A stretch of DNA of 64,000 bases from an uncultured Alphaproteobacteria bacterium (GCA_902621305.1 CACNLM010000002.1:69812-133811), one strand, 5' to 3'. Counted from the stretch's first letter, positions 2,657-24,503 are shown. Numbers and translations: made by a program. The notes: generated from the letters alone by a model not told the origin.

Positions 2657-3664
2657 TTAGGATAAAAAACCAATAATTTCTTTAGTTTTTTGCAAAACAG
2701 GTTCTGCTACTGCTATAGCGTTCTCTTTTCCCTGATTTAAAATAGAATCGATGTAAGAAACATCACTCATAAGTTTATTCATTTCACTGGTAATTGGTTC
2801 TAATTTAGATACGGATAAATCTGCTAAATCTTTTTTAAAGATGGAGAATTCTTTACCTGCATAATCTTTAATAACACTTTCAATTGATGTATCTTGCAAA
2901 GAAGCAAATATCGAGATTAGGTTTTCTGCCTCCGGTCTCTTTTCTAAACTAGTTTTATCTTGCGGTAATGGTTCAGGGTCTGTTTTTGCCTTTTTAATTT
3001 TTTGTGTAATATTTTCTGCTGTATCAGTTAACATTATTCTCGAATAATCAGAAGGATCTGATTTACTCATTTTTTTTGAACCATCGCGGAGACTCATCAC
3101 TCTTGTGGCTTCTCCTAAAATTAATGGTTCAGGAATTGGAAAAAAATCTGTCTTAAAATCATTATTGAATTTTTGTGCAATATCTCTTGTTAATTCCAAA
3201 TGTTGTTTTTGATCATCGCCTACTGGGACGTGCGTTGCTAAATAAATTAATATATCTGCTGCCATTAATGTTGGGTAAGAAAATAAACCAACAGAAACGT
3301 TCTCACTATTTTTACCAGCTTTATCTTTAAATTGTGTCATCCGGTTTAACCATCCCATTCGGGCAACACAATTGAACAGCCATCCAAGCTGTGCATGTTG
3401 AGGAACTTGTGATTGAACAAAAATATTATTTTTTTTTGGATCAATGCCAGAGGCGATAAAAGCTGCAGTTACTTCTCGTGTTTTATTTGCTAACACTTTT
3501 GGATCTTGCCAAACGGTAATGGCATGCAAATCGACTACACAAAAAAAACATTCGTATTCTTTTTGAAGAGAAACAAAATTTTTTATCGCACCAAGATAAT
3601 TTCCTAAATGCAAATCACCAGATGGTTGCACACCAGATAGAATTCTTTTTGTTGGTTTTTCCAT
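2657..3664 (-). CDS. trpS: tryptophan--tRNA ligase
   Basis: Class I aaRS motifs '[10 protein letters not shown]' (HIGH-type) and 'KMSKS'. Length of 335 aa is typical for TrpRS. Confidence 0.93.
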
Positions 3665-11185: not shown

Positions 11186-11215
11186 TTAAAATAAGGTTGT
11201 CCTACAGAATATATA

Positions 11216-12268
11216 TTAAGGATTTATTACAGTTTGCTGAAATACTGGTAAAGAAATAGTAAATGTTGAACCCTTATCTACCTTGCTTTTTATCGATAAT
11301 TTACCATTATGCCTATTAGTTATATGTTTAACAATAGATAAACCCAAACCCGTACCGCCTTGATTTCGAGATCTATTTTTATCTACTCTATAAAATCTTT
11401 CAGTAAGTCTAGTTAAATGCTCTTTCGATATGCCTTCTCCCTTATCTATAAAACTTATTTGGCAAAAGGTGGTATTGTCATCAATTACACTCTCAAGCTC
11501 AATTTCAATAGTAGAATTTTCTTTGCTATATTTGATTGCATTATCAGTTAGATTTAAAAAAACTTGAATCAAAGCATCTTTGTTTGCTGATATTGTAGAC
11601 TTATCAAAATCATCCTTGATTTGAACTTCAATTTTTTTTGCCATTAACTTGTTTTGTAAATTATCTACTACGCCATCAATTAATTGCCTTATATTCGCTT
11701 CTTGAAATTCTATCGGCTTATCTTCAGTCTCATATTTACTTAGTAATAATAAATCTTCGACTAATCTAGTCATACGCCAAGCCTGATCTTCCATTGTGTC
11801 TAAAAATTTACCAACCGTTTTGTCTTTGTTCTTATCTTCATTGAGTGAATTTTTAATTGTTTCAACATAGCCTAGAATTGAGGAAAGAGGAGTTCTCAAT
11901 TCATGACTTACATTAGCCACAAAATCTGTTCGCATTTGTTCGTAGTTTTTAAGAAGACTTTGATCGTTTAGTGATATTAATAATTCTTCATAATCTTTTT
12001 CAACAAATATTAAGTCAGCAATAAAATACATATCACTAAAATTAGATGGGGTGAATTCAAACCTAAAATCTTCTTTCTCCCTAAAGGCTTTATCAATAAA
12101 AGTATTTAACTCTGTTGATCTAATAATATTATTGAGATCTCTTCCTTCATCTATAAATAAAAATTTTTGTTTAGCTGCATTATTGTAAAAAATTATTTCC
12201 TTATTTGTATCAATTGCAATAATAATCGAAGGTATCTTACTTAGACTTAGTCTTAGTTTTTTTTTCAT
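11216..12268 (-). CDS. phoR: phosphate regulon sensor histidine kinase PhoR (no predicted membrane anchor)
   Basis: PAS-like N-terminus, HisKA 'FVANVSHELRTPLSSILGY', and HATPase motifs 'NLTDNAIKY', 'DKGEGI', 'GGTGLGLSIVKH'. Genomic context is the pst operon. Confidence 0.8.
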   Translation of the reverse strand: MKKKLRLSLSKIPSIIIAIDTNKEIIFYNNAAKQKFLFIDEGRDLNNIIRSTELNTFIDKAFREKEDFRFEFTPSNFSDMYFIADLIFVEKDYEELLISLNDQSLLKNYEQMRTDFVANVSHELRTPLSSILGYVETIKNSLNEDKNKDKTVGKFLDTMEDQAWRMTRLVEDLLLLSKYETEDKPIEFQEANIRQLIDGVVDNLQNKLMAKKIEVQIKDDFDKSTISANKDALIQVFLNLTDNAIKYSKENSTIEIELESVIDDNTTFCQISFIDKGEGISKEHLTRLTERFYRVDKNRSRNQGGTGLGLSIVKHITNRHNGKLSIKSKVDKGSTFTISLPVFQQTVINP

Positions 12269-12737
12269 ATTTCTTTAATTTTGGCCAATCATTGTCACTT
12301 AAAATATAACCTACACAATTTCTAGAACCACACTTACAAATGTGATCCACAAAATCTGTATCAAAAGGATAACCATAGTTATAGAAAAGTTCGTCTCCTT
12401 TTTTTATTCGTTTAATAGAAGAAATCCAAATCTCATTATCTATGATGTCTACTTCACAATTCGGATTACATGAGTGATTAATAAATTTTGCAAAGTTATA
12501 ATCAACATCACCGTCTATGTCGTATCGCTTGTTTAGTTCAAAAACATAGACCATGCCGTTATTTTTATCTTTTTTTGCTTTGCGGATTTGTTTATCTGCT
12601 CTTTTGTCACCCTCTCTTTTAGTAACTTTATCACCAATATATTGGATTACTTTCTGGCCTTTTTTAATATTAGTTTTTGCAAATAATCCAGAACCGTGAA
12701 GGGGTGATTTTTTTTTAAACCAAATTTTCTGCGTCAT
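12237..12737 (-). CDS. SET-domain (plus post-SET) protein, putative protein lysine methyltransferase
   Basis: Motifs 'SPLHGSGLFA', 'INHSCNPNCE', 'ELFYNYGY' and the Cys-rich post-SET 'CKCGSRNCVGY'. The start was moved to the ATG at 12737 (MTQKIW); the 90-codon N-terminal extension of the tracked ORF has no SET homology and overlaps the divergent plcP gene. Confidence 0.75.
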   Translation of the reverse strand: MTQKIWFKKKSPLHGSGLFAKTNIKKGQKVIQYIGDKVTKREGDKRADKQIRKAKKDKNNGMVYVFELNKRYDIDGDVDYNFAKFINHSCNPNCEVDIIDNEIWISSIKRIKKGDELFYNYGYPFDTDFVDHICKCGSRNCVGYILSDNDWPKLKKYEKKTKTKSK

Positions 12738-12823
12738 ACTGTTATTTTTATACAATACACACATATAATAATAAATTGTATTATAAAATGATACTTTTAT
12801 GTATAAGAACAAATCTTTAATTA

Positions 12824-13636
12824 ATGAAATTTGAAAGTAATAAAAAATTTTACCGCACAATTTGGATTTCGGATACCCACCTAGGAACCAGTGGTTGTAA
12901 AAGCAAAATGCTTTTAGAATTCTTAGAAGAAACAGATTCGGAATATTTATTTTTAGTAGGCGACATTGTTGATGGATGGCGCATGCGTAAGAAAATGTAT
13001 TGGCCACAAGAACATAACGACGTGGTTCAAAAAGTTTTAAAGAAAGCGAAAAATGGAGCTAGGGTAGTGCTTATCCCAGGAAATCATGATGAAGTATTAA
13101 AAGATTTTACAAATTTTTCCTTTGGAGAAATTTCAATAAAAAATGAAGATACGCATCAATTAGCTGATGGAAGGAAAGTACTGATTACACACGGAGATGA
13201 ATTTGATGCTGTGATAATTAATGCGAGGTGGTTAGCCAAAGTGGGATCAGCACTTTATGAATATTTACTAAAGTTAAATAATGTATTCAATTTTATTCGA
13301 CGAAAGATGGGCTTGTCTTATTGGTCACTGTCTCAATATTTAAAAAAGAAAACTAAGCATGCAACAAACTTTATTAGTAACTTTGAGTTTGCTGTATCTG
13401 ACAGAGCTAGAAGAGAAAATGCCGATGTTGTTGTGTGCGGGCATATACATAGACCAGAAATAAAGGAATTAAATGGTGTTCTCTATTGTAATGATGGTGA
13501 CTGGATTGAAAGTTGCACAGCACTCGTTGAAGATGAAATTGGCAATTTATCAATTCTTAATTGGCCCGAAGAAAGAGAAAAATTAAAATTAATTTCTTTA
13601 GAAGAAAGACGAAAAATAAAAGAGGATGCAGCCTAA
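12824..13636 (+). CDS. plcP: LpxH-like metallophosphoesterase, PlcP-type phospholipase C candidate (copy 1)
   Basis: Calcineurin-fold motifs 'ISDTHLG', 'VGDIVDGW', 'GNHDE', 'HGDEFD', 'CGHIH'. It overlaps a GT4 glycosyltransferase, the arrangement described for the SAR11/roseobacter lipid-remodelling plcP-agt operon. Confidence 0.7.
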   Translation: MKFESNKKFYRTIWISDTHLGTSGCKSKMLLEFLEETDSEYLFLVGDIVDGWRMRKKMYWPQEHNDVVQKVLKKAKNGARVVLIPGNHDEVLKDFTNFSFGEISIKNEDTHQLADGRKVLITHGDEFDAVIINARWLAKVGSALYEYLLKLNNVFNFIRRKMGLSYWSLSQYLKKKTKHATNFISNFEFAVSDRARRENADVVVCGHIHRPEIKELNGVLYCNDGDWIESCTALVEDEIGNLSILNWPEEREKLKLISLEERRKIKEDAA

Positions 13637-14627
13637 AAAAATCGCGTTAATTAGTGATGCGTGGGTTCCTCAGGTAAATGGCGTAGTTACGACATTTCAA
13701 AGCGTTATACCTATTCTAGAAAAAAAAGGTTTTGAAATTAAAATATTACATCCTGAGATGTTTAATAATTTTAGTTATCCTAGGTACAAAGAAATAAAAA
13801 TTTCTTACAATACTAAAAAAGTTACTGAAAAATTTTTTAAAGAATTTAATCCAGATATTGTTCATATAATGACTGAAGGTCCAGTAGGTTTTGCTGGTCG
13901 TAAGTACTGCCTTAAAAATAAACTACAATACACTTCTTCCTTTCACACCCGTTTTCCTGACTACATGAAGCAAAGAGCTTTTATCCCAAAGAGATTTACA
14001 TACTCCATATTAAGAAGACTACATAGTGATTCAGAAAGAGTTCTTGTTCCATCAGTTTCAATGCTAAATGAGTTAAAAAAATATGATTTTAAAAATTTAG
14101 TAGTTTGGAATAGAGGTGTTGATACAGAATTATTTAATCCAAATAAAAGAGACACAAACAGTAAAGATAGACAACTGACTTATGTTGGTAGAGTAGCAAT
14201 TGAAAAAAATATTGAAGAATTTTTAAAACTTAAAGGAAATTATAATAAAACTGTTGTGGGTGATGGTCCCGAATTACAAAAATATATTAATAAATATCCT
14301 GAAGTAAATTTTGTCGGTGTAAAAACTGGAGATGAACTAGCAAAATATTATGCAAACGCAGATGTATTTGTCTTTCCTTCTAAAACAGACACTTTAGGAA
14401 ATGTAATACTTGAAGCATTGGCTAGTGGAACACCAATTGCTGCATATCCAGTAACCGGGCCCATAGATGTGTTAACAGATGAAAAGATTAACACTTTAGA
14501 TAATAACTTGTTACAATCAGTTAAGAAGGCACTTAAAGTAAAAAGAGTTGATTGTAGAAATTTTACTCTTAAATTAACTTGGGACAAATGTGTGAATGAA
14601 TTTTTAGAATTCATGGTAAACGTTTAG
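13626..14627 (+). CDS. agt: GT4-family glycosyltransferase, glycosyl-diacylglycerol synthase candidate (Agt, copy 1)
   Basis: GT-B fold motifs 'SDAWVPQVNGVV', 'VGDGP' and 'FPSKTDTLGNVILEALASGTPI' (EX7E-like). Overlaps plcP by 11 nt. Confidence 0.7.
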   Translation: MQPKKIALISDAWVPQVNGVVTTFQSVIPILEKKGFEIKILHPEMFNNFSYPRYKEIKISYNTKKVTEKFFKEFNPDIVHIMTEGPVGFAGRKYCLKNKLQYTSSFHTRFPDYMKQRAFIPKRFTYSILRRLHSDSERVLVPSVSMLNELKKYDFKNLVVWNRGVDTELFNPNKRDTNSKDRQLTYVGRVAIEKNIEEFLKLKGNYNKTVVGDGPELQKYINKYPEVNFVGVKTGDELAKYYANADVFVFPSKTDTLGNVILEALASGTPIAAYPVTGPIDVLTDEKINTLDNNLLQSVKKALKVKRVDCRNFTLKLTWDKCVNEFLEFMVNV

Positions 14628-14641
14628 TTATTTAGGGTAAT

Positions 14642-15304
14642 TTGATAGTGACATTTTCTTTAAGACAAAAAATACTAGCAGAATTTATCGGGACATATTT
14701 TCTTGTACTAACAGTTGTAGGTAGTGGAATTATGGGAGAGTTAATGTCAAATGACCTTGGTATAATATTACTAGGAAACACTATCGCAACAGGTGCCATT
14801 TTATATGTAATTATTTCTATGTTTATTAATATCTCAGGAGCGTACTTTAATCCTGCTGTTGTATTAAGTGATATTATCCAAAAAAATATTCCTATTAATT
14901 ACGGAATAATTTTTATTATTACTCAGATTATTGCTGCTATATTTGGTTGTTTAACTGCAAATTGGTATTTTGAATATCCTATAATTGAATGGTCACTCAA
15001 TGAAAGAGTTGGGGTATTTAAATTCTTTTCAGAAATAATTGCAACTGTTGGATTATTATTAACTATTTTTATATTAAAAGAGGTAAACAAGGAAAGAATA
15101 GCTATTGGTGTAGCTCTATTTATTACCGCAGGATATTGGTTTACTTCATCAACAAGTTTTGCAAATCCAGCAGTAACTATAGGAAGAATGTTTACAGATA
15201 GCTTTAGTGGGATAAGTCCATCAAGTGTTCTAGGTTTTATTTTAGCTCAGATTATTGGTGCTCTTATTGCTACAGTTATTGTTAGATTGTTTTTTAAAAA
15301 TTAG
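14642..15304 (+). CDS. MIP-family channel (aquaporin/aquaglyceroporin-like)
   Basis: Six hydrophobic segments and two NPA boxes ('GAYFNPAVV', 'SFANPAVTIG'). TTG start as tracked; GTG at 14648 is an alternative. Confidence 0.85.
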   Translation: MIVTFSLRQKILAEFIGTYFLVLTVVGSGIMGELMSNDLGIILLGNTIATGAILYVIISMFINISGAYFNPAVVLSDIIQKNIPINYGIIFIITQIIAAIFGCLTANWYFEYPIIEWSLNERVGVFKFFSEIIATVGLLLTIFILKEVNKERIAIGVALFITAGYWFTSSTSFANPAVTIGRMFTDSFSGISPSSVLGFILAQIIGALIATVIVRLFFKN

Positions 15305-16757: not shown

Positions 16758-18857
16758 ATGTTAAAAAAAAATACCACTTATAACTATGCAAACAGGGAAT
16801 TGTCTTGGCTAAAATTCAATGAAAGAGTCTTAAGTCAGACATCTGATAGTAAAATTCCACTTTTAGAAAGGGTTAGATTTTTATCAATAGCATTCTCTAA
16901 TTTAGATGAATTTTTTATGGTTAGAGTAGCAGGATTGAATGTTCAAAAATTTTCACGAAATAAAAGTTTTGATGGATTAACACCACAACAACAACTCAAG
17001 CTGATAGATAAAGAAACATCGAAGATGATTTCAAATATAAAATCAATATGGATAGATTTACTAAGAGAGCTTTCAGAAAACAAAATCCATATAGATGTAG
17101 AAAAAACTCTGAAAACAAAAGATAAAACATTTATTAAAAATTATTTAGAAGAAAATAATTGGGGAGTTTTAACACCAATTATTATTGATCCATCTCACCC
17201 ATTTCCTTTTATACCAAATAAAGAAACAACCTTAGTATGTCGTTTAATAAATAATAAAAAAACTTTTTATGGAATACTGAGAGTGCCAGAGGGATTAGAA
17301 AAATTTATTAAATTACCTGGTAAAAAAACACGTTTTGTATCTATGGAGACAGCCCTACTTATTTCTCTAAAAGAAATTTTCCAGTGTGATAGGGTTTTGG
17401 ATAAAGGTGTTTTTAGACCAATTAGGAATAGTGAATTAGAATTAGGGGGTGAGGGAGAAGATTTATTTTTAGTATTTCAAAAAGCTATTTTTGAGAGAAG
17501 AAGACAAGAGGTAATAAGAATTGATTTTGATGAAAACATATCTAGTCACTTAATTAAATTCATAAATAAAAAACTTAACTATAAGGATGTAAATACATAT
17601 AAACTGCCAATACCCGTTAATCTTTCGAGTATAGAGTCAATTTTTTTGAAAGATTTTAAAAAATTATTTTTTCCAAAATTTAAGGTACGATTTCCTGAAA
17701 GAATTAAAGATTTTAAAAATGATTATTTTAAAGCTATAGCAAATAAAGATATTGTTATTCATCACCCTTTTGAATCTTTTGAAGTAGTCACTCAGTTTAT
17801 TGATCAAGCTGCAGATGACCCAAAAGTCTTATCAATAAAACATACTTTATACCGAACTACTGATGACTCACCAATAGAAGCAAGTTTAGTTAGAGCAGCA
17901 CAAAAAGGAAAATTAGTAACTGTCATTATAGAGTTGCAAGCACGTTTTGATGAAGAGCGTAACTTAAAATGGGCAAAAGAATTAGAATTTGCTGGAGCGC
18001 AAGTTGTTTTTGGCAATATTGATATGAAAACTCATGCAAAAATTACACTTGTAACAAGGAAGCAAATGAATTCTGTTGTAAATTACGCACATTATGGAAC
18101 AGGTAATTATCACCCAAGAAATGCAAGAATTTATATGGATTTATCTTACTTCACCTGTGACAAAACATTAACAAATGATGCTGCAAAAATGTTTAATTAT
18201 TTAACTAGTTATTCAGAACCAACCACAATAAAAAAAATAGTATATTCTCCAATAACTGCAAGAAACAAATTAAATGAACTAATTAGAAATGAAATTACAA
18301 ATGCTGGAAAAAATAAACCATCTGGAATAGTATGTAAGTGTAATTCTCTTGTTGATAAACAAATTATTGATGAATTTTATAAAGCATCTCAAAAAAATGT
18401 AAAAATTGAATTGTTGATAAGAGGAATTTGCTCTCTAATACCTGGTAAAGAAAATCTATCGGAAAATATAGTTGTTAAAAGTATAATTGGTCGTTTTTTA
18501 GAACATACGAGAATATATTGTTTTTATAACGGTCATAAATTCCCTCATAGAAAAAATATCTTGTTTATTTCTTCTGCCGATTTAATGCAAAGAAATCTAG
18601 ATAGGCGGGTTGAAACATTCATCCCTATTGAAAATGAAACTGTACATGAACAAATATTAAATCAGATCTTAATTGCCAGTATGGCAGATAATACAAATTC
18701 TTGGCAAATGTTGAGTAATGGCAATTATCAGAAAAAAGAAATATCAAGCAAAGAAAAAAAATTTTCCTCTCACAATTTTTTTATCAAAAATCCAAGCTTG
18801 TCTGGGAGGGGTTCAGCAAAACTCAAATCTAGAGCTAAGTCTAATTTAAAAATTTGA
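16758..18857 (+). CDS. ppk: polyphosphate kinase 1
   Basis: 699 aa. N-terminus 'NRELSWLKFNERVL', the 'HAKITLV' autophosphorylation His region and two PLD-like C-terminal domains. Confidence 0.93.
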   Translation: MLKKNTTYNYANRELSWLKFNERVLSQTSDSKIPLLERVRFLSIAFSNLDEFFMVRVAGLNVQKFSRNKSFDGLTPQQQLKLIDKETSKMISNIKSIWIDLLRELSENKIHIDVEKTLKTKDKTFIKNYLEENNWGVLTPIIIDPSHPFPFIPNKETTLVCRLINNKKTFYGILRVPEGLEKFIKLPGKKTRFVSMETALLISLKEIFQCDRVLDKGVFRPIRNSELELGGEGEDLFLVFQKAIFERRRQEVIRIDFDENISSHLIKFINKKLNYKDVNTYKLPIPVNLSSIESIFLKDFKKLFFPKFKVRFPERIKDFKNDYFKAIANKDIVIHHPFESFEVVTQFIDQAADDPKVLSIKHTLYRTTDDSPIEASLVRAAQKGKLVTVIIELQARFDEERNLKWAKELEFAGAQVVFGNIDMKTHAKITLVTRKQMNSVVNYAHYGTGNYHPRNARIYMDLSYFTCDKTLTNDAAKMFNYLTSYSEPTTIKKIVYSPITARNKLNELIRNEITNAGKNKPSGIVCKCNSLVDKQIIDEFYKASQKNVKIELLIRGICSLIPGKENLSENIVVKSIIGRFLEHTRIYCFYNGHKFPHRKNILFISSADLMQRNLDRRVETFIPIENETVHEQILNQILIASMADNTNSWQMLSNGNYQKKEISSKEKKFSSHNFFIKNPSLSGRGSAKLKSRAKSNLKI

Positions 18858-18866
18858 AAATAGAAT

Positions 18867-19062
18867 TTAATCCCACTCACAACAATTGGACATAGCAGGA
18901 AGAAATAATATTGTGAGTGGTAAAGAGTACTTAAATTTTATTTTTTACAGACGTGTTAATAGAATATTAAATTTTTATAAATTAAACTTATTTTTAAATT
19001 TATTAGTTTTCAAATAAATTTTTTAGTTCTTTCAATTTAATAAAAATTAAGTCTCTTACTTT
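18867..19062. repeat. direct repeat copy R1 (left flank of the agt2-plcP2-acyltransferase cassette)
   Basis: Aligns by eye, colinearly, with 21878-22073 (offset 3011 nt) at roughly four-fifths identity. It begins 10 nt after the ppk stop and contains a long hairpin (18873-18920) and an arsC 3' relic. Confidence 0.85.
19003..19062 (-). pseudogene. relic of the arsC 3' end (19 codons plus stop)
   Basis: Minus-strand translation gives KVRDLIFIKLKELKNLFEN*, versus the intact ArsC C-terminus EVRDSIFDKLKELKNLFEN* at 22015-22074. There is no upstream coding continuation. Confidence 0.8.
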
Positions 19063-19083
19063 TTAGTAACTATAATTTTAAAA

Positions 19084-20079
19084 TTAATTTTTTGCATTTA
19101 CAATATTTGATAGAAATTGATTTGCACATTTATCCCAAGTAAATTGCATTGCAAATTTTCTGCAATCATTTCTATCAATCTTTAAAGCTTTTTTAAGTGA
19201 TTTTTCAATATTGTTATCAAGGGTGTCAATTAATGAGTTTTTTAAAATATCTTTAGGACCTGTTACTGGGTAAGCAGCCACTGGTGTTCCAGAGGCTAAA
19301 GACTCTAAAATTACATTTCCAAATGTATCTGTTTTGGATGGGAATACCAACGCTTCAGCATTTGCATAATAATTTGCTAAGTCTTGACCTTTTTTCATCC
19401 CAACGAAAGATACATATGGATATTTGTTTTGTAGTCGTTGTTTTTCTGGACCATCTCCAACAACAATTTTATCCATCTTAGTTCTTATTTCTAAAAACGC
19501 TTCGATGTTTTTTTCTAATGAAACTCTACCAATGTAAACAATATACTTTTTCAGTCCTTTTCTTCTTTTTAAAGGATTAAATAATTCAGTATTAACTCCC
19601 CTTGACCAAATTTTAAGATTTTGAAATTGATATTTAGTTAATTCGTTACGCATAGATATTGTTGGGACCAATACATTACATGCATTTTTATGAAAATTTT
19701 TTAAAAAAGAGTACCCAATTATTTTTGGTATCATTATTCTTTGCTCTATATATTCTGGAAATCTCGTATGAAAAGAGGTTGTATATCTCAACTTATTATT
19801 CTCACAGAATTTTTTCCCCGCAATTCCAACTGGTCCTTCAGTGGCAATATGTATAACATCAGGATCATAATCACCAAAAAATTTTTCTGTTATTTTTTTT
19901 GTATTAATTGCTATTTTTATTTCCTTATACCAAGGATAACTAAAATTAGTAAACATCATTGGGTGGAGTACTTCAATTTGATACTTTTGTTTTAAAAATG
20001 GATTAATATGTAGGTATGTATTTACAACACCATTAACTTGAGGAAGCCAAGCATCGGTAATGATCGCTAATTTTTTCAA
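19084..20079 (-). CDS. GT4-family glycosyltransferase, Agt paralogue (copy 2)
   Basis: Colinear with the 13626-14627 product at roughly 60% identity by eye, with the same motifs ('TDAWLPQVNGVV', 'FPSKTDTFGNVILESLASGTPV'). Confidence 0.7.
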   Translation of the reverse strand: MKKLAIITDAWLPQVNGVVNTYLHINPFLKQKYQIEVLHPMMFTNFSYPWYKEIKIAINTKKITEKFFGDYDPDVIHIATEGPVGIAGKKFCENNKLRYTTSFHTRFPEYIEQRIMIPKIIGYSFLKNFHKNACNVLVPTISMRNELTKYQFQNLKIWSRGVNTELFNPLKRRKGLKKYIVYIGRVSLEKNIEAFLEIRTKMDKIVVGDGPEKQRLQNKYPYVSFVGMKKGQDLANYYANAEALVFPSKTDTFGNVILESLASGTPVAAYPVTGPKDILKNSLIDTLDNNIEKSLKKALKIDRNDCRKFAMQFTWDKCANQFLSNIVNAKN

Positions 20080-20882
20080 ACTAATACACTTTCTGCTAGT
20101 TTGTTATGTTTATGTTGAAAAATTTTTTCTCTTTCAATTGACCAGTCAATAAGGGATAATTGTCCCTCTTTATTTTCCACTAGCGCAGAACAACTCTCAA
20201 CCCAATCACCATCATTGCAATATAACACTCCGTTTAATTTTTTTATAACGGGCTTATGAATATGGCCGCACACAACAACATCGGCATTTGCTCTTTTAGC
20301 GCTATCAGATACGGCAAACTCAAAGTTAGAAATAAAATTCGTGGCTCTTTTTGTTTGATGTTTGAGAAATTGAGATAATGACCAATAAGATAGACCTAGT
20401 TTTCTTCTGACAAAATTTAGATAGTTATTCAACTTTAATATAAATTCGTATAGAGATGACCCAATACTTGCCAGCCATTTAGCGTTTAATATAACTGCAT
20501 CAAATTCATCACCATGTAAAACAAGGGCATTTCTTCCATCAGCTAATTTGTGTGTAAACTTATTTTTTATTGATATATTCCCTAGTGAAAAACTTGTGTA
20601 ACTTTTCACAAGTTCGTCATGATTACCTGGGATAAATATTACTTTTGTACCTTTTCTTGCTTTACGCAAAATCTTCTGGATAATGTCATTATGAGTTTGA
20701 TGCCAATAAATTTTTTTTTTCATTCTCCATGCATCAATAATATCGCCAACTAAAAATAAATATTTTGAATCTGTTGATCTCAAAAATTCAAGAAGCATTT
20801 CACTCTTGCTATTTTCTGTTCCAAGATGAAGATCAGATATCCATATAGTTCTATAATATGAAACTGATTGCTGATCTTTCAT
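20076..20882 (-). CDS. LpxH-like metallophosphoesterase, PlcP paralogue (copy 2)
   Basis: Colinear with the 12824-13636 product at roughly two-thirds identity by eye ('YRTIWISDLHLGT', 'GNHDE', 'HGDEFD', 'CGHIH'). Overlaps agt2 by 4 nt. Confidence 0.7.
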   Translation of the reverse strand: MKDQQSVSYYRTIWISDLHLGTENSKSEMLLEFLRSTDSKYLFLVGDIIDAWRMKKKIYWHQTHNDIIQKILRKARKGTKVIFIPGNHDELVKSYTSFSLGNISIKNKFTHKLADGRNALVLHGDEFDAVILNAKWLASIGSSLYEFILKLNNYLNFVRRKLGLSYWSLSQFLKHQTKRATNFISNFEFAVSDSAKRANADVVVCGHIHKPVIKKLNGVLYCNDGDWVESCSALVENKEGQLSLIDWSIEREKIFQHKHNKLAESVLV

Positions 20883-20960
20883 TTTATTAATAAATAATAG
20901 AAAGAATTTGTTAAAATTTTATTTCAATTACATTAACTAAATTTTTTTTTTACAGAAGTA

Positions 20961-21803
20961 TTAATTAAATATTGAGTTTTTATTACTTGGATCTAATCTA
21001 TAAGTGCTATTCCTTAAAAATTTTGTAATCTCAATAAGATTGCCAATTTCTTTTATGGTTTCAAAGGGTATTCTTTGTCCAATATGAACATCAATTTTTT
21101 TTCCCATTCTTCTTTTAAGTTCATATATCATTAAAGAATATCGAAAGACTTGCCCAATTTTATCAGCAACATGAAAAAGTTCGCTATTTTGTCCTTCAAA
21201 AAAAATTGGGAGGACAGGTGATTGAGTTTTCATTATTATTTTTGAAGTAAATTGTTTCCATTCACGATCTATTGCTTTGATTCCTTTTTTTAATTTTGGT
21301 TTCGTTGAAACTGATCCTGATGGAAAAATGATTAGTGCCCCATTATTTCTTAAGTGTTCTTCGCATTCTTTACGTGCAGCGATATTATTTATTAAAGCAT
21401 TTCTATTTTTTGAAAAATCAAGAGGAATAATTTTATTCTTAATAAGATCTGCTCCTTGTAAAACTTTATGCGTAATAATTTTGTAATCTTGTCTAATTTT
21501 ACTAATTAAAGAGCATATTGTAAGACCATCAGCTATTCCAAATGCATGGTTAGCGATTACTACAAGTTTGCCATTTTTAGGAATATTACTTTTAGAATGA
21601 TAATGTGTCTGAATACGGAGACCTAATCTTTCAATTGCATCATGCCAAAAATTCTCTGGAGGTAAATTTTCTCTTAAATAATCCTCATACAACTTACGTA
21701 ACTTAATTTTACCCGTTCCCAATTCGGTTAATTGAATAATAATCTTTCCAACAGGATTAACTTCGGAGTTAGAAAAGGTAAGCGCTGGTTTATTAATTTT
21801 CAT
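20961..21803 (-). CDS. PlsC-like (lysophospholipid/glycerolipid) acyltransferase family protein
   Basis: 'VVIANHAFGIADG' acyltransferase His/Asp box (spacing deviates from strict HX4D) followed by 'IFPSGSVS'. Co-oriented upstream of plcP2-agt2. Confidence 0.55.
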   Translation of the reverse strand: MKINKPALTFSNSEVNPVGKIIIQLTELGTGKIKLRKLYEDYLRENLPPENFWHDAIERLGLRIQTHYHSKSNIPKNGKLVVIANHAFGIADGLTICSLISKIRQDYKIITHKVLQGADLIKNKIIPLDFSKNRNALINNIAARKECEEHLRNNGALIIFPSGSVSTKPKLKKGIKAIDREWKQFTSKIIMKTQSPVLPIFFEGQNSELFHVADKIGQVFRYSLMIYELKRRMGKKIDVHIGQRIPFETIKEIGNLIEITKFLRNSTYRLDPSNKNSIFN

Positions 21804-21877
21804 AAAATTTACTTTAAATTCTTAATTTTATAATGTTAAACAATTGTTAAAGTACTCGAAAAAGGAGAAATAAAAAA

Positions 21878-22073
21878 TTAATCCCACTCACAATTATTGG
21901 TAATTAGCAGGAGGAAATAATACTGTGAGTGGTAAGAAACATTTAAATTTTATTGTTTACAAATAGATTAATGGAATATTAAATTTTTATAAATTTAATT
22001 AATTTTTAACTTCATTAATTCTCAAATAAATTTTTTAGTTCTTTCAATTTATCAAAAATTGAATCTCTTACTT
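21878..22073. repeat. direct repeat copy R2 (right flank of the cassette; includes the genuine arsC 3' end)
   Basis: Partner of 18867-19062. It contains the hairpin at 21884-21932 and the last ~19 codons of intact arsC. Confidence 0.85.
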
Positions 22074-22434
22074 CTCTAAATTTATCTAATTGGTTTAAAC
22101 TAAAATGATCTGATGCCGGATCATCAAATGGTATTGAAAATATCTGAGCTTTGGAATTTAAAACTGGACATACCTCTTCTTTACAAAGCGTAAAAACGGT
22201 ATTTAATTCATCTCTAAATTTGTTGTCTAAACTTTCAAAATCTTTTGAATAATGTTTTGATATATCAATATCGATTTCACCCATAACCTCGATAGCATTA
22301 GGATTAACTTCTTTGGGCACTGATCCTGCACTTTGAATAATGCAATTAGGATATAATTTTTTTGCAATTCCTTCAGCCATTTGACTTCTTGCTGAATTAG
22401 CAACACACATAAAAAGAATATTTTTATTTTTCAT
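22015..22434 (-). CDS. arsC: arsenate reductase, LMW-PTP (thioredoxin-coupled) type
   Basis: 'ILFMCVANSARSQMAEG' CX5R(S/T) P-loop plus downstream Cys residues ('LCKEEVCP'). 139 aa. Confidence 0.85.
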   Translation of the reverse strand: MKNKNILFMCVANSARSQMAEGIAKKLYPNCIIQSAGSVPKEVNPNAIEVMGEIDIDISKHYSKDFESLDNKFRDELNTVFTLCKEEVCPVLNSKAQIFSIPFDDPASDHFSLNQLDKFREVRDSIFDKLKELKNLFEN

Positions 22435-22658: not shown

Positions 22659-22781
22659 ATCTTCTCCTAAATTCTATATATTGCGAATATTACACTTTAC
22701 TTAAAGATAAAGATATTAATCAAATTGTAACAAAAATTTAACATTTCTTTCTTTTTTTTTGAAAAGTTCTATAAGCACGCC

Positions 22782-23444
22782 ATGTTTGGATTAAAAAGTG
22801 CATCATTATTTGGTGATACCAAAAAGCTTGAAAGAGAAATTGATGAGTTTGTTGATATTGTCTCTGAAGTGGGCTTAGTATTTAAATCGATAGTTCCAAC
22901 TTATCTCAATCATTCCGCCAATGGTAAATTTGAGGAAATGGTTGAAAAAGTTAAAGAAATGGAAAGTAAAGCCGACAAAATTACAAAAGATGTTGAGCAT
23001 ACTCTTTATGAAGAAACACTAATCCCAGATGCAAGAAGTGATGTGTTACGACTTCTAGAACACATCGACGAATTAATTGGAATGTACCAAGGAAATTGCT
23101 ATCACTTCTCTATTCAAAAACCTAATTTTCCAAAAGAATTTCATGAAGATCTTATTGAGTTAACAGAGACTGTTGTAAATTGTGTTGAGTCACTTTGTTT
23201 GACTGTCCGATCATTTTTTAGAGATATTAAATCTGTTAGAGATAATGCTCATAAAGTAACTTTTTATGAAAAAGAATCTGATATAAAATTTAGTTCACTT
23301 GCAAGAAGAATTTTTGATTCTGAATTACCTCTAGATCAAAAAATGCATCTTCGATATTTTGTAGAAAAGATTGATCGTATTTGTGATCAAGCAGAAGACA
23401 TAGCTGACGAGGTTCAAATTTACGCTATTAAACGTTCCGTTTAA
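22782..23444 (+). CDS. DUF47 / TIGR00153-family protein (PhoU-like Pit accessory protein)
   Basis: 220-aa helical protein immediately upstream of a PiT transporter, the conserved DUF47-pit pairing. C-terminal 'DRICDQAEDIADEV' resembles a PhoU repeat. Confidence 0.7.
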   Translation: MFGLKSASLFGDTKKLEREIDEFVDIVSEVGLVFKSIVPTYLNHSANGKFEEMVEKVKEMESKADKITKDVEHTLYEETLIPDARSDVLRLLEHIDELIGMYQGNCYHFSIQKPNFPKEFHEDLIELTETVVNCVESLCLTVRSFFRDIKSVRDNAHKVTFYEKESDIKFSSLARRIFDSELPLDQKMHLRYFVEKIDRICDQAEDIADEVQIYAIKRSV

Positions 23445-23450
23445 TTTTCA

Positions 23451-24503
23451 ATGGAAATTACAATTCTAATTTTTTTATTTGGTGGTCTTTTTTTAGGTTG
23501 GTCACTTGGTGCCAATGATGCAGCAAATGTTTTTGGAACTGCAGTTGGAACACGAATGGTTAGTTTCACAAGTGCAGCAATAATTTGTAGTGTCTTTGTT
23601 ATTCTAGGTGCAATTATTAGCGGAGCAGGTACAACAGAAACCTTAGGAAAGTTAGGTGCTATTAATGCATTGCCTGGTGCTTTTGCAGCATGTGTTGCTG
23701 CAGGAATATCTGTTTATTTAATGACTAAAGTTGGCTTGCCTGTTTCAACAACGCAAGCGATTGTTGGAGCAATTGTTGGTTGGAATTTATACACAGGATC
23801 TTCAACTAATCTTCAAGTTTTAATTACTATTTTAGGAACATGGATACTCTGTCCTATTATTGCAGGAGTTATTGCAATGGGTTTATTTACTTTTACAAAA
23901 AGAGTTATACTCAATAGAAAGTTACATATTCTCAGACTTGATGCCTATACAAGAACAGCTTTACTTTTAGCGGGTGCTTTTGGTGCTTATAGTTTAGGTG
24001 CAAACAATATTGCCAATGTAATGGGTGTCTTCGTACCTATATCACCGTTTACTGATGTTACTATTGGAAATTTATTTGTCTTTTCCTCAAAAGAACAATT
24101 ATTTCTGCTGGGTGGTTTAGCAATAGCTGTTGGTGTTTTTACTTACTCGAAAAGTGTTATGTTTACCGTGGGTAATGATCTCTTAAAAATGACACCAGTG
24201 GCAGCATTTATTGTTGTTATATCGCATTCTATTGTTTTATTTTTATTTGCATCCCAGGGTATAAGTGCTTTTTTACAATCTATAAATCTTCCCTCTATAC
24301 CTTTGGTACCAGTATCAAGTTCCCAAGCTGTTGTCGGCGGCGTAATTGGAATTGGTCTTTTAAAAGGAGGAAAAGAGGTTCAATGGTCAATTGCAGGTAG
24401 AATTTCTTTGGGTTGGATGACGCTACCTATAATTGCAGCTTTAATTTCTTTAATTGTTTTATTTATTCTAGAAAATATTTTTAATTTAACGGTCTCTTTT
24501 TAA
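23451..24503 (+). CDS. pit: PiT-family inorganic phosphate transporter
   Basis: Duplicated PiT signature 'GANDAANVFGTAVG' / 'GANNIANVMGVF' in a polytopic membrane protein. Confidence 0.88.
   Translation: MEITILIFLFGGLFLGWSLGANDAANVFGTAVGTRMVSFTSAAIICSVFVILGAIISGAGTTETLGKLGAINALPGAFAACVAAGISVYLMTKVGLPVSTTQAIVGAIVGWNLYTGSSTNLQVLITILGTWILCPIIAGVIAMGLFTFTKRVILNRKLHILRLDAYTRTALLLAGAFGAYSLGANNIANVMGVFVPISPFTDVTIGNLFVFSSKEQLFLLGGLAIAVGVFTYSKSVMFTVGNDLLKMTPVAAFIVVISHSIVLFLFASQGISAFLQSINLPSIPLVPVSSSQAVVGGVIGIGLLKGGKEVQWSIAGRISLGWMTLPIIAALISLIVLFILENIFNLTVSF

Follow-up and report, generated by a model that had tools for sequence, protein, structure and literature searches.

How are genes added to and removed from a genome that has almost no mobile elements? 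The question is raised by SAR11 bacteria, which are streamlined in this way yet vary in flexible gene content from cell to cell, and in particular by one locus of their phosphate island, a part of the flexible content that tracks phosphorus scarcity. The locus lies in a stretch of 64,000 nucleotides (nt) from an uncultured Alphaproteobacteria bacterium (GCA_902621305.1, CACNLM010000002.1:69812-133811), which we refer to as the window. At positions 18867-22073, between the convergent genes ppk (polyphosphate kinase) and arsC, a block of three genes is enclosed by two direct repeats that resemble the ppk/arsC junction. The repeats are, in our judgement, probably the scar of insertion-duplication events at this junction of the SAR11 phosphate island. 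The earlier case for recombination in such islands rested mainly on absent hallmarks of mobile elements (PMC10734472, PMC11796062); this locus is a physical record of it, consisting of a duplicated convergent junction with relics of both flanking genes, a series of empty, acyltransferase-only, four-gene and three-gene alleles, and hybrid single-copy sites. It illustrates how a single population can gain, rearrange and lose genes for phosphorus-sparing lipids, and the mechanism at the locus is directly testable.

A duplicated ppk/arsC junction

The repeats at 18867-19062 and 21878-22073 are colinear and directly oriented: their global alignment has 166 identical positions in 197 columns (84%) and one 1-nt indel. 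A blastn comparison of the two copies gives a 215-nt match (82.8%, E 4.6e-59), while a repeat search reports one segment of 169 nt (18893-19061 / 21905-22073, 85%, spacing 3012) and a second of 42 nt (18848-18889 / 21859-21900, 79%, spacing 3011). The local alignment scores 134, whereas approximately 490 random 196-nt windows drawn from the same 31%-GC sequence average 14 and do not exceed 32; low-complexity AT sequence does not account for the similarity. The pairwise alignment thus agrees with the initial annotation of this DNA, which had described repeats of ~196 bp that are about four-fifths identical. The relevant features are as follows.

16758-18857, plus strand: ppk (polyphosphate kinase), left flank; Pfam PP_kinase N, middle, C1 and C2 domains
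18867-19062, minus strand: left repeat copy (E_L and arsC relic); 84% identical to the right copy, with weaker similarity back to 18848
18873-18920, minus strand: left-copy hairpin; arms CCACTCACAA / TTGTGAGTGG, pyrimidine-rich loop UUUCUUCCU on the minus strand
19003-19062, minus strand: arsC relic (c'), the last 19 codons and stop; translates to KVRDLIFIKLKELKNLFEN and a stop
19084-20079, minus strand: agt2, a GT4 diacylglycerol glycosyltransferase paralogue; Pfam GT4/GT1, 61% identical to agt1
20076-20882, minus strand: plcP2, a PlcP-type metallophosphoesterase paralogue; Pfam Metallophos, 69% identical to plcP1
20938-20988, minus strand: E3', a third, partial repeat copy (47 nt, 85%, E 1e-8) of approximately the first 50 nt of the hairpin-proximal half
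20961-21803, minus strand: acyltransferase of the OlsF-N-terminal / GlsA type (lyso-aminolipid O-acyltransferase-like); PF19576 and PF01553
21878-22073, minus strand: right repeat copy (E_R and the real arsC 3' end); 98-100% identical among carriers, with weaker similarity from 21859
21884-21932, minus strand: right-copy hairpin; loop UUUCCUCCU, then a U-rich tract on the minus strand
22015-22434, minus strand: arsC-like gene of the low-molecular-weight protein phosphatase (LMWP) family, right flank, 139 amino acids (aa); PF01451

The ppk stop codon is at 18857 and the left repeat begins 10 nt beyond it. The translations confirm that the right copy includes the true end of arsC (22015-22074 on the minus strand, EVRDSIFDKLKELKNLFEN and a stop) and that the left copy carries an orphan relic of 19 codons. 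Between the copies, Pfam domains likewise bear out an acyltransferase and PlcP and Agt paralogues, all on the minus strand. We use E for the spacer of approximately 145 nt that each full copy contains, with a structurally conserved hairpin and a probable role as a bidirectional terminator. The right copy serves as both the arsC terminator region and the region upstream of the acyltransferase. Each full copy holds an 11-bp hairpin (z -3.6 to -3.8); in the consensus of 11 pairs, three show compensatory (double) changes and none of the nine core pairs is broken. Across the genomes that carry the block (hereafter carriers), the right-copy hairpin is invariant save for one loop substitution in the carrier L081. 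E3' overlaps the 3' end of the acyltransferase gene, with its onset in the final 5-6 codons.

Alleles of the junction in relatives

Among public sequences, tropical single-cell genomes (e.g. GCA_902538165) are nearest; in our collection, which does not contain the window itself and gave no exact match for its arsC, L081 is the closest (99%). Both repeats are present in 21 of 21 single-cell genomes of the lineage, and every one of these sites is occupied. Single-copy junctions are found elsewhere. In a sister lineage (L001 and ten marine metagenome contigs, L108-L117; 11 loci), ppk is followed by 140-154 nt and arsC, with ppk 74-75% identical to that of the window at the amino acid level and arsC 68%. 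The sister spacer has the same hairpin with two compensatory pair changes, followed by eight T on the arsC strand. Three further contigs (L120, L123 and L124) from the same population as the carriers are also empty. The initial proposal of an ancestral order in which ppk and arsC converge on a hairpin is upheld by both groups, and the single-copy alleles, together with relics of both flanks (below), support the reading of the repeats as a duplicated junction around inserted genes.

Three kinds of occupied site are seen. The acyltransferase-only allele, on the Sargasso scaffold L122, reads arsC, E, acyltransferase, 6 nt, the last ~60 nt of a gene for a 470-aa protein, a terminator hairpin and the real ppk stop. 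Its ppk differs by 4.3-5.2% from those of the carriers, which differ by no more than 2.6% among themselves. The four-gene allele occurs in seven of the 21 single-cell genomes and in contig L121 (L082, L083, L099, L100, L104-L106 and L121), with the order arsC, E_R, acyltransferase, E3', 470-aa gene, terminator, ppk relic, ~195 nt, plcP2, agt2, arsC relic, E_L and ppk. The ppk 3' relic, which duplicates the segment formed by the last ~45 nt of ppk and its stop ('p'), is 57 nt long (L082 12386-12442) and is 91% identical to window positions 18813-18869 (E 4e-17) and 89.5% identical to the real ppk end of its own genome (E 2e-16). The three-gene allele is found in the window and also in 13 single-cell genomes and several contigs from metagenomes. 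It is related to the four-gene allele by a single deletion:

20939-20940, no strand: deletion junction; 1,772 nt absent relative to four-gene relatives (L082 10866-12637)

Window positions 20801-21040 align to L082 10764-10865 and then to 12638-12777, such that 20939/20940 corresponds to L082 10865/12638. The sequence lost comprised the remainder of the third E copy, the 470-aa gene with its terminator hairpin, the 57-nt ppk relic and ~195 nt. The set of exactly three genes first described between the repeats is thus derived. Owing to this deletion, the window keeps only the arsC relic of the two inner-end relics.

Nor did the genes travel as one cassette. The acyltransferase is 83-84% identical to genes in two unrelated contexts. 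In L118 the block of acyltransferase, full E copy, 470-aa gene and terminator is conserved (87% at the nt level) in otherwise unrelated surroundings, with the full-length E copy, hairpin included, downstream of the acyltransferase at 3276-3405; in L119 the acyltransferase is in a core context with no E, and its C-terminus diverges after the residues NKN. These contexts and the L122 allele indicate that the acyltransferase arrived separately from plcP2-agt2: an insertion is retained from the initial proposal, a single three-gene cassette is not.

The plcP2-agt2 pair has a history within the island. In the sister lineage, two plcP-agt pairs lie in tandem between the SET and MIP genes (L108 193-3874; L109-L117), and the second is the reciprocal best match of plcP2-agt2 (75% / 67%, versus 73% / 61% to pair 1). 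The pair is an old paralogue pair, a relocated or re-imported island resident, and not a novel import. plcP2 is 75% identical to the sister plcPb and to its counterpart in L122, and agt2 is 67% identical to the sister's second agt and to that of L122. Database homologues of agt2 are at least 92% identical or at most 68%, with none between; P0285 (92%) has the same gene context. The sequence upstream of plcP2 in L082 is weakly similar to the 3' end of agt-a and the spacer of the sister tandem (71% over 84 nt, E 4e-4).

Two side observations concern these pairs: L122 has only a type-2-like plcP-agt pair between SET and MIP, and at least three deeply diverged type-2 variants (67-78% identical) exist.

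Proposed history of the locus

In the four-gene form, plcP2-agt2 is placed exactly between the ppk relic and the arsC relic, with a complete copy of the respective flank outward of each. This is the topology of DNA bearing a junction plus cargo that has recombined homologously with the chromosome. The joint between terminator and ppk in L122 is the same as that between terminator and ppk relic in the carriers, and L122 branches outside the carriers; we infer that the acyltransferase and 470-aa block came first and plcP2-agt2 second.

The ancestral state, seen in relatives, is ppk and arsC converging on E. In a first step, which is partly documented by the alleles, the acyltransferase open reading frame (ORF) and the 470-aa gene with its own terminator would have landed between E and the ppk stop, and the hairpin-proximal half of E would have been duplicated in the process, its extra copy lying behind the acyltransferase; L122 preserves this state. 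In a second step, of which the alleles display the product and suggest the mechanism, junction-bearing DNA joined to plcP2-agt2 would have entered by homologous recombination. The incoming junction copy, ~260 nt long, would have comprised the last ~45-57 nt of ppk, E and the last 59 nt of arsC. Entry would have been either by Campbell-type single crossover of a circle or as a linear fragment with one homologous and one short-homology crossover. The product is ppk, (E_L and arsC relic), agt2, plcP2, (ppk relic), 470-aa gene, acyltransferase, (E_R), arsC. In the third step, evident in the alignment with L082, the 1,772-nt deletion in the sub-lineage of the window removed the 470-aa gene and the ppk relic to give the three-gene form. 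At present, RecA-type recombination between the direct repeats could excise the whole block, and the resulting circle could in principle re-insert.

Origin of the left copy

When left-copy haplotypes are compared with the right copy, five sites in the arsC half are diagnostic, and at five of five every left-copy haplotype agrees with the functional arsC end and the spacer of L122. The left copy is therefore not simply copied from the present right copy but descends from another junction allele, and so part of the divergence between the copies was, as far as these sites indicate, already present in the incoming DNA. One diagnostic site can be polarised, and there the sister lineage has the right-copy state; polarisation of the other differences by the sister lineage is ambiguous, its spacer being too diverged. 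The hairpin half is reticulate, with the right copy sharing states with the E of L118, and the left copy and the carriers' E3' with L122. The divergent donor lineage first proposed thus keeps some support in the L122-type allele of the arsC half, but much of the divergence is later decay of the left copy.

Several points weigh against the history set out above. The alternative states ATTAAT(A/C)CGTCTG and ATTAATCTA(TT/CC)TG are shared across copies in a way that no single tree fits, and such reticulate alleles mean that gene conversion blurs which half is 'native'. In the hairpin half, E_L has 8-13 differences from the E of L122 and E_R has 16; E_L is therefore closer to L122, the presumed recipient type, which fits a rearrangement in cis equally well. 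No homologue of agt2 between 68% and 92% identity, and no foreign donor lineage, is found among 5.8 billion proteins, and the plcP2-agt2 pair may have moved within the genome. Neither a circular intermediate nor a donor genome was found, and the predicted intermediate with plcP2-agt2 alone (arsC, E, ppk relic, plcP2, agt2, arsC relic, E, ppk) was not seen among the alleles. If step 1 preceded step 2, the crossover would be forced to lie within ~57 nt of homology. The empty sites of the same population nest among carriers and cannot serve as ancestral recipients, and one of them, L120, is a contig of 2x coverage with an internal ppk deletion. On balance, a foreign-allele event, either Campbell-type or by homology-facilitated illegitimate recombination (HFIR), is preferred, with cis rearrangement plus recombinational replacement of the right copy as a serious rival.

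Diversity and probable excision

Nucleotide diversity (pi) among carriers is 0.001-0.004 over E_R and the ~150 nt at the start of the acyltransferase; coding DNA nearby has 0.01-0.035, and E_L has 0.06-0.08 (22 sequences), the highest of the region. The low value for E_R implies that the right copy is constrained or was recently swept. The left copy is a decaying relic of the ppk/arsC junction, with at least five haplotypes, some of which have extra changes and a frameshift in the relic. As a separate observation, pi is 0.000-0.004 at 21650-22100 and at 20660-20860, the latter being the first ~200 nt of plcP2; these minima point to strong constraint on 5' regions or a recent sweep.

The single copy in L120, L123 and L124 is a hybrid: the arsC side is of right type, and the ppk side is of left type and carries the L081 haplotype, including its private C. 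The switch falls within a 13-nt stretch, AAATTTATAAAAA, in the AT-rich spacer and outside the hairpin. The ppk genes of these contigs differ by only 0.1-0.3% from those of the carriers L081, L094 and L084. The empty sites of the same population are probably excisions by recombination between the repeats, although the reverse reaction, insertion, would give the same hybrid picture. The search for empty sites that the initial annotation had proposed therefore succeeded in the sister lineage, while its same-population matches, nested within carriers, more likely represent loss than the state before insertion.

Two of these contigs have peculiarities of their own. In L120, ppk lacks 158 nt (window 18348-18505) around position 1200, and nt 1-208 do not match the window; either ppk has decayed or the contig is partly chimeric. 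In L124 (5177-8576), only the last 69 codons of arsC remain, joined in frame to a prepilin-like N-terminus, with pseudopilin-like, GspF-like and GspE-like genes beyond it. Genes are thus also replaced on the arsC side of the junction.

Alternative explanations

A rearrangement in cis would dispense with a donor. Template switching (like fork stalling and template switching or microhomology-mediated break-induced replication, FoSTeS/MMBIR) or unequal exchange would have duplicated the segment from the ppk 3' end through E to the arsC 3' end; in the same event the plcP2-agt2 pair of that genome, at the time in tandem behind agt1, would have been copied into the new joint, with the original later deleted and the divergence of the copies produced by subsequent decay and by replacement of the right copy through recombination. 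The orthologues of plcP2-agt2 lie ~4 kb away in the same island of the sister lineage, at 75% and 67% identity they have diverged about as far as the genes around them (ppk 74%, arsC 68%), and no closer donor appears among the 5.8 billion proteins. E_L is nearest to the E of the acyltransferase-only relative L122, and the extremely low diversity of the right copy is compatible with a recent sweep that replaced the original sequence. Against this, three template switches or several successive steps would be needed, plus precise loss of the original pair; the whole 16% divergence between left and right must be attributed to decay and right-copy replacement; and the duplicated half of E that belongs to the acyltransferase block itself is not predicted. 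We regard the cis route as unlikely overall, while granting it an appreciable share of the probability. Site-specific recombination is improbable by comparison. Here the E hairpin would be an att- or attC-like site, acted on by a recombinase located elsewhere or since lost, and the genes integron-like cassettes of gene plus hairpin. The alternation of genes and hairpins (arsC and E, acyltransferase and E3, the 470-aa gene and its own hairpin, agt2 and E_L) has this appearance, and the stem is conserved with compensatory changes, as is the loop motif. The repeats, however, extend into both genes (59 nt in arsC, ~45 nt in ppk), and their identity is no more than 84%, which indicates duplicated homology and not a short identical core. 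The switch at excision is in the AT-rich spacer, outside the hairpin, and searches of the window, of other SAR11 loci and of 2.9 million viral contigs locate E nowhere else. Integrase, attI-like arrangement and tRNA are likewise absent (58 ORFs scanned).

Still less probable is an old, fixed structural or regulatory duplication, in which two functional terminator/promoter modules had always enclosed the cassette. The presence of both copies in all 21 single-cell genomes and the strong constraint on the right copy would suit it, but the left copy includes non-functional arsC relic codons and forms the most variable stretch of the region, and a regulatory role for the ppk relic is not conceivable. 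The empty state of the sister lineage and the half-filled state of L122 refute its strong form. An assembly artefact, whether false duplication in the window or repeat collapse in the 'empty' contigs, is the least credible of these explanations. Short metagenome contigs do break off right at the edge of the repeat (L085 and L088 begin 7 nt beyond it), and L120 combines 2x coverage with an internal deletion. Yet two copies with copy-specific single-nucleotide polymorphisms occur in 21 independently assembled single-cell genomes and several metagenomes, the empty form occurs in three contigs from two projects, of which L124 has a different right-hand context, and the switch lies in a 13-nt shared stretch, which is shorter than assembler k-mers.

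Comparison with known systems

Insertion-duplication is seen in mutagenesis with non-replicating circles and in the integration of plasmids or excised circles. The ppk/arsC locus shares several features of such Campbell-type integration: the insert is enclosed by two copies of the target segment in the same orientation; at their inner ends both flanking genes recur in truncated form (including the ppk relic of the four-gene alleles); and there is a single-copy allele, with recombination between the copies restoring a hybrid single copy. It differs in that no vector, replicon or selectable circle is known and the circle is conjectural, in that the homologous segment is a convergent gene junction of ~260 nt whose copies are 84% identical, having been diverged from the start or having become so since, and in that events are nested, giving three copies of part of E. 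HFIR in natural transformation also adds genes beside a homologous anchor with no site-specific enzyme, and it would fit a step-2 crossover in a long ppk anchor and the ~57-nt end; the target is normally not duplicated by HFIR, however, and SAR11 competence is putative here.

Among SAR11 genomes, the closest likeness is to tRNA-linked additive genomic islands, in which a partial tRNA repeat marks cassette insertion (Molina-Pardines et al. 2025, PMC11796062). Clade, lack of canonical mobile elements and a partial repeat of the boundary gene inside the island are shared. Here, however, the boundary is formed by the 3' ends of two protein genes and a shared terminator and not by a tRNA, and the repeats are longer and more diverged, with relics from both flanks. 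The phosphate islands of the HIMB59 and HTCC7211 types have the same genes (SET, GlpF/MIP, ppx, SixA, ppk, LMWP phosphatase, LpxH-like [PlcP], RfaG-like [Agt], phoR/B and pst) and island versions that likewise differ at a fixed genomic position. In the HIMB59 islands, homologous recombination was proposed since mobile-element hallmarks are absent (PMC10734472); here, in contrast, one sub-block provides a physical scar and intermediate alleles. Integron cassettes resemble the locus in their gene-plus-hairpin periodicity and in the additive growth of an array at one site, but no IntI or attI is present here, the repeats include coding relics of the flanking genes, and the boundaries are in coding relics and AT-rich spacer and not at the hairpin. 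An integrase-mediated island would differ in having a recombinase and a tRNA or tmRNA, none of which is found (58 ORFs and 64 kb, respectively), and short near-identical att cores in place of ~200-nt repeats of 84% identity. What is new is the type of junction (two convergent protein genes with a terminator), the relics of both flanks, the nested duplications and the natural series of alleles. The mechanism itself is textbook recombination in a natural, ecologically important setting, and no new kind of system.

A broader reading, which we offer as speculative and think rather doubtful, is that E acts as a reusable, recombinase-free 'landing pad' at which successive blocks (acyltransferase, 470-aa gene, plcP2-agt2) are captured by homologous recombination with junction-bearing DNA of other cells. 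Each capture would duplicate part of the pad, and the repeats would let the block leave as a transferable, re-insertable circle. If true, this would amount to an integron-like platform for accretion and excision that needs no enzyme but RecA, in a genome devoid of mobile elements.

Genes of the block and its flanks

plcP2 is directly upstream of agt2 with a 4-nt overlap, and the combination of Metallophos and GT4 domains is the layout of the PlcP/Agt lipid-remodelling operon (Sebastian et al. 2016, PMC4796936). PlcP/Agt pairs yield diacylglycerol and glycolipids that substitute for phospholipids in phosphate starvation (PMC4796936, PMC8231724). The acyltransferase matches the NCBIfam models OlsF (E 6e-42, 144 bits; cut-off 620) and GlsA (E 2e-25, 89 bits; cut-off 260) and scores 59 bits with PF19576, above the gathering score. 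It is predicted to be related to the OlsF/GlsA class without being an equivalog; PF19576 marks the class of lyso-aminolipid O-acyltransferases to which GlsA and the OlsF N-terminus belong (PMC11631085). On these domain assignments, 'lipid-remodelling block' seems a reasonable label for the cargo.

The 470-aa gene (L082 10951-12363) encodes a very acidic, Gly/Asp-rich protein with an N-terminal signal peptide and no match in Pfam or NCBIfam. Its presence varies among closely related single-cell genomes, and it has been lost by two independent deletions, one in the window type and one in L122, where only the last ~60 nt are left.

The arsC-like gene scores 92 bits with NCBIfam arsC_pI258_fam, below the cut-off of 174. 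It bears the CX5R-S-Q-M-A-E-G motif of thioredoxin-type ArsC, and it may act as either arsenate reductase or protein phosphatase; the HIMB59 literature labels its homologue Wzb. A contig scan with ppk yielded mostly generic alphaproteobacterial ppk genes, L001 as the one useful close locus, and eight distant SAR11 loci that have another order (ppk-ppx...MIP-arsC) and are uninformative for the junction. In the distant loci L069-L078 the arsC homologue adjoins the MIP channel gene; the positions concerned in the window are 14642-15304 and 22015-22434.

Further features of E

The terminator scan did not call the E hairpin, the loop of which is longer than 8 nt, and Rfam has no family for E (window at the gathering threshold; region at E<=5). 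E was also considered as a dispersed repeat or miniature inverted-repeat transposable element; nhmmer and regular-expression searches of the window and 18 SAR11 loci find only junction-derived positions. As for a phage att site, the search of 2.9 million viral contigs gave six matches, all of them unrelated hairpins on contigs of 28-64% GC with no flanking similarity. By these searches E is not a dispersed element, and every copy traces to the ppk/arsC junction. A 43-aa ORF in the left copy (18886-19017) is not accepted as a gene, as its right-copy counterpart ends after 13 codons and the sister lineage shows a start-stop there.

The hairpin loops (18895-18912 and 21907-21924; L001 2790-2810; L118 3355-3370) keep AGGAGG or GGAAGG on the ppk strand, which reads CCUCC or CUUCC on the arsC strand. 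In all copies, including those of the sister lineage, NUG-UGA (UUG-UAA in L001) follows on the ppk strand 7-8 nt past this motif. The motif may act as a Shine-Dalgarno (SD)-like start-stop or, in a small RNA, as an anti-SD loop, or it may arise by chance from the sequence of the stem. A second motif in the repeat, TTAAT-N6-TTAAT (21967-21982, minus strand), resembles GTAAT-N6-TTAAT upstream of pstS (11215-11230, minus strand), with 11-nt phasing, and is a possible Pho box; this reading lacks statistical support, the motif occurring at chance frequency in the window (4 found versus 4.15 expected).

Island setting

The order in the window is phoB, phoU, pstBACS, phoR, SET, plcP1-agt1, MIP, ppx, SixA-like, ppk and the block, beyond which are the arsC-like gene, DUF6552, the PhoU_div-Pit pair and phosphonate-related genes. 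The window is a SAR11 (Pelagibacter) phosphate island. The resident paralogue pair is:

12824-14627 (12824-13636 / 13626-14627), plus strand: plcP1-agt1; orthologous to the first pair of the sister lineage (87% / 71%)

No integrase or transposase had been noted at the outset, nor any tRNA, and this held: no recombinase or transposase domain (Pfam) is present among the 58 window ORFs scanned, no tRNA or tmRNA in the 64-kb window, and no tyrosine or serine recombinase among the precomputed domains within 10 kb on either side in the relatives. 'Recombinase-less' gene addition remains an interpretation of these data.

Other parts of the island also vary. The PhoU_div-Pit pair (22706-24498) is absent in L083 and L100-L105, where the protein tyrosine phosphatase (PTP) gene abuts DUF6552; this presence/absence junction is clean, with no long flanking repeat, so the polymorphism arose in another way and insertion-duplication does not apply to all indels of the island. 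At the left end of L105 (58-2842), genes for Methyltransf_28, Cu-oxidase_4 and phosphoribosyl pyrophosphate (PRPP) synthetase precede agt1 and replace SET and plcP1, which reflects either another island rearrangement or a chimeric assembly.

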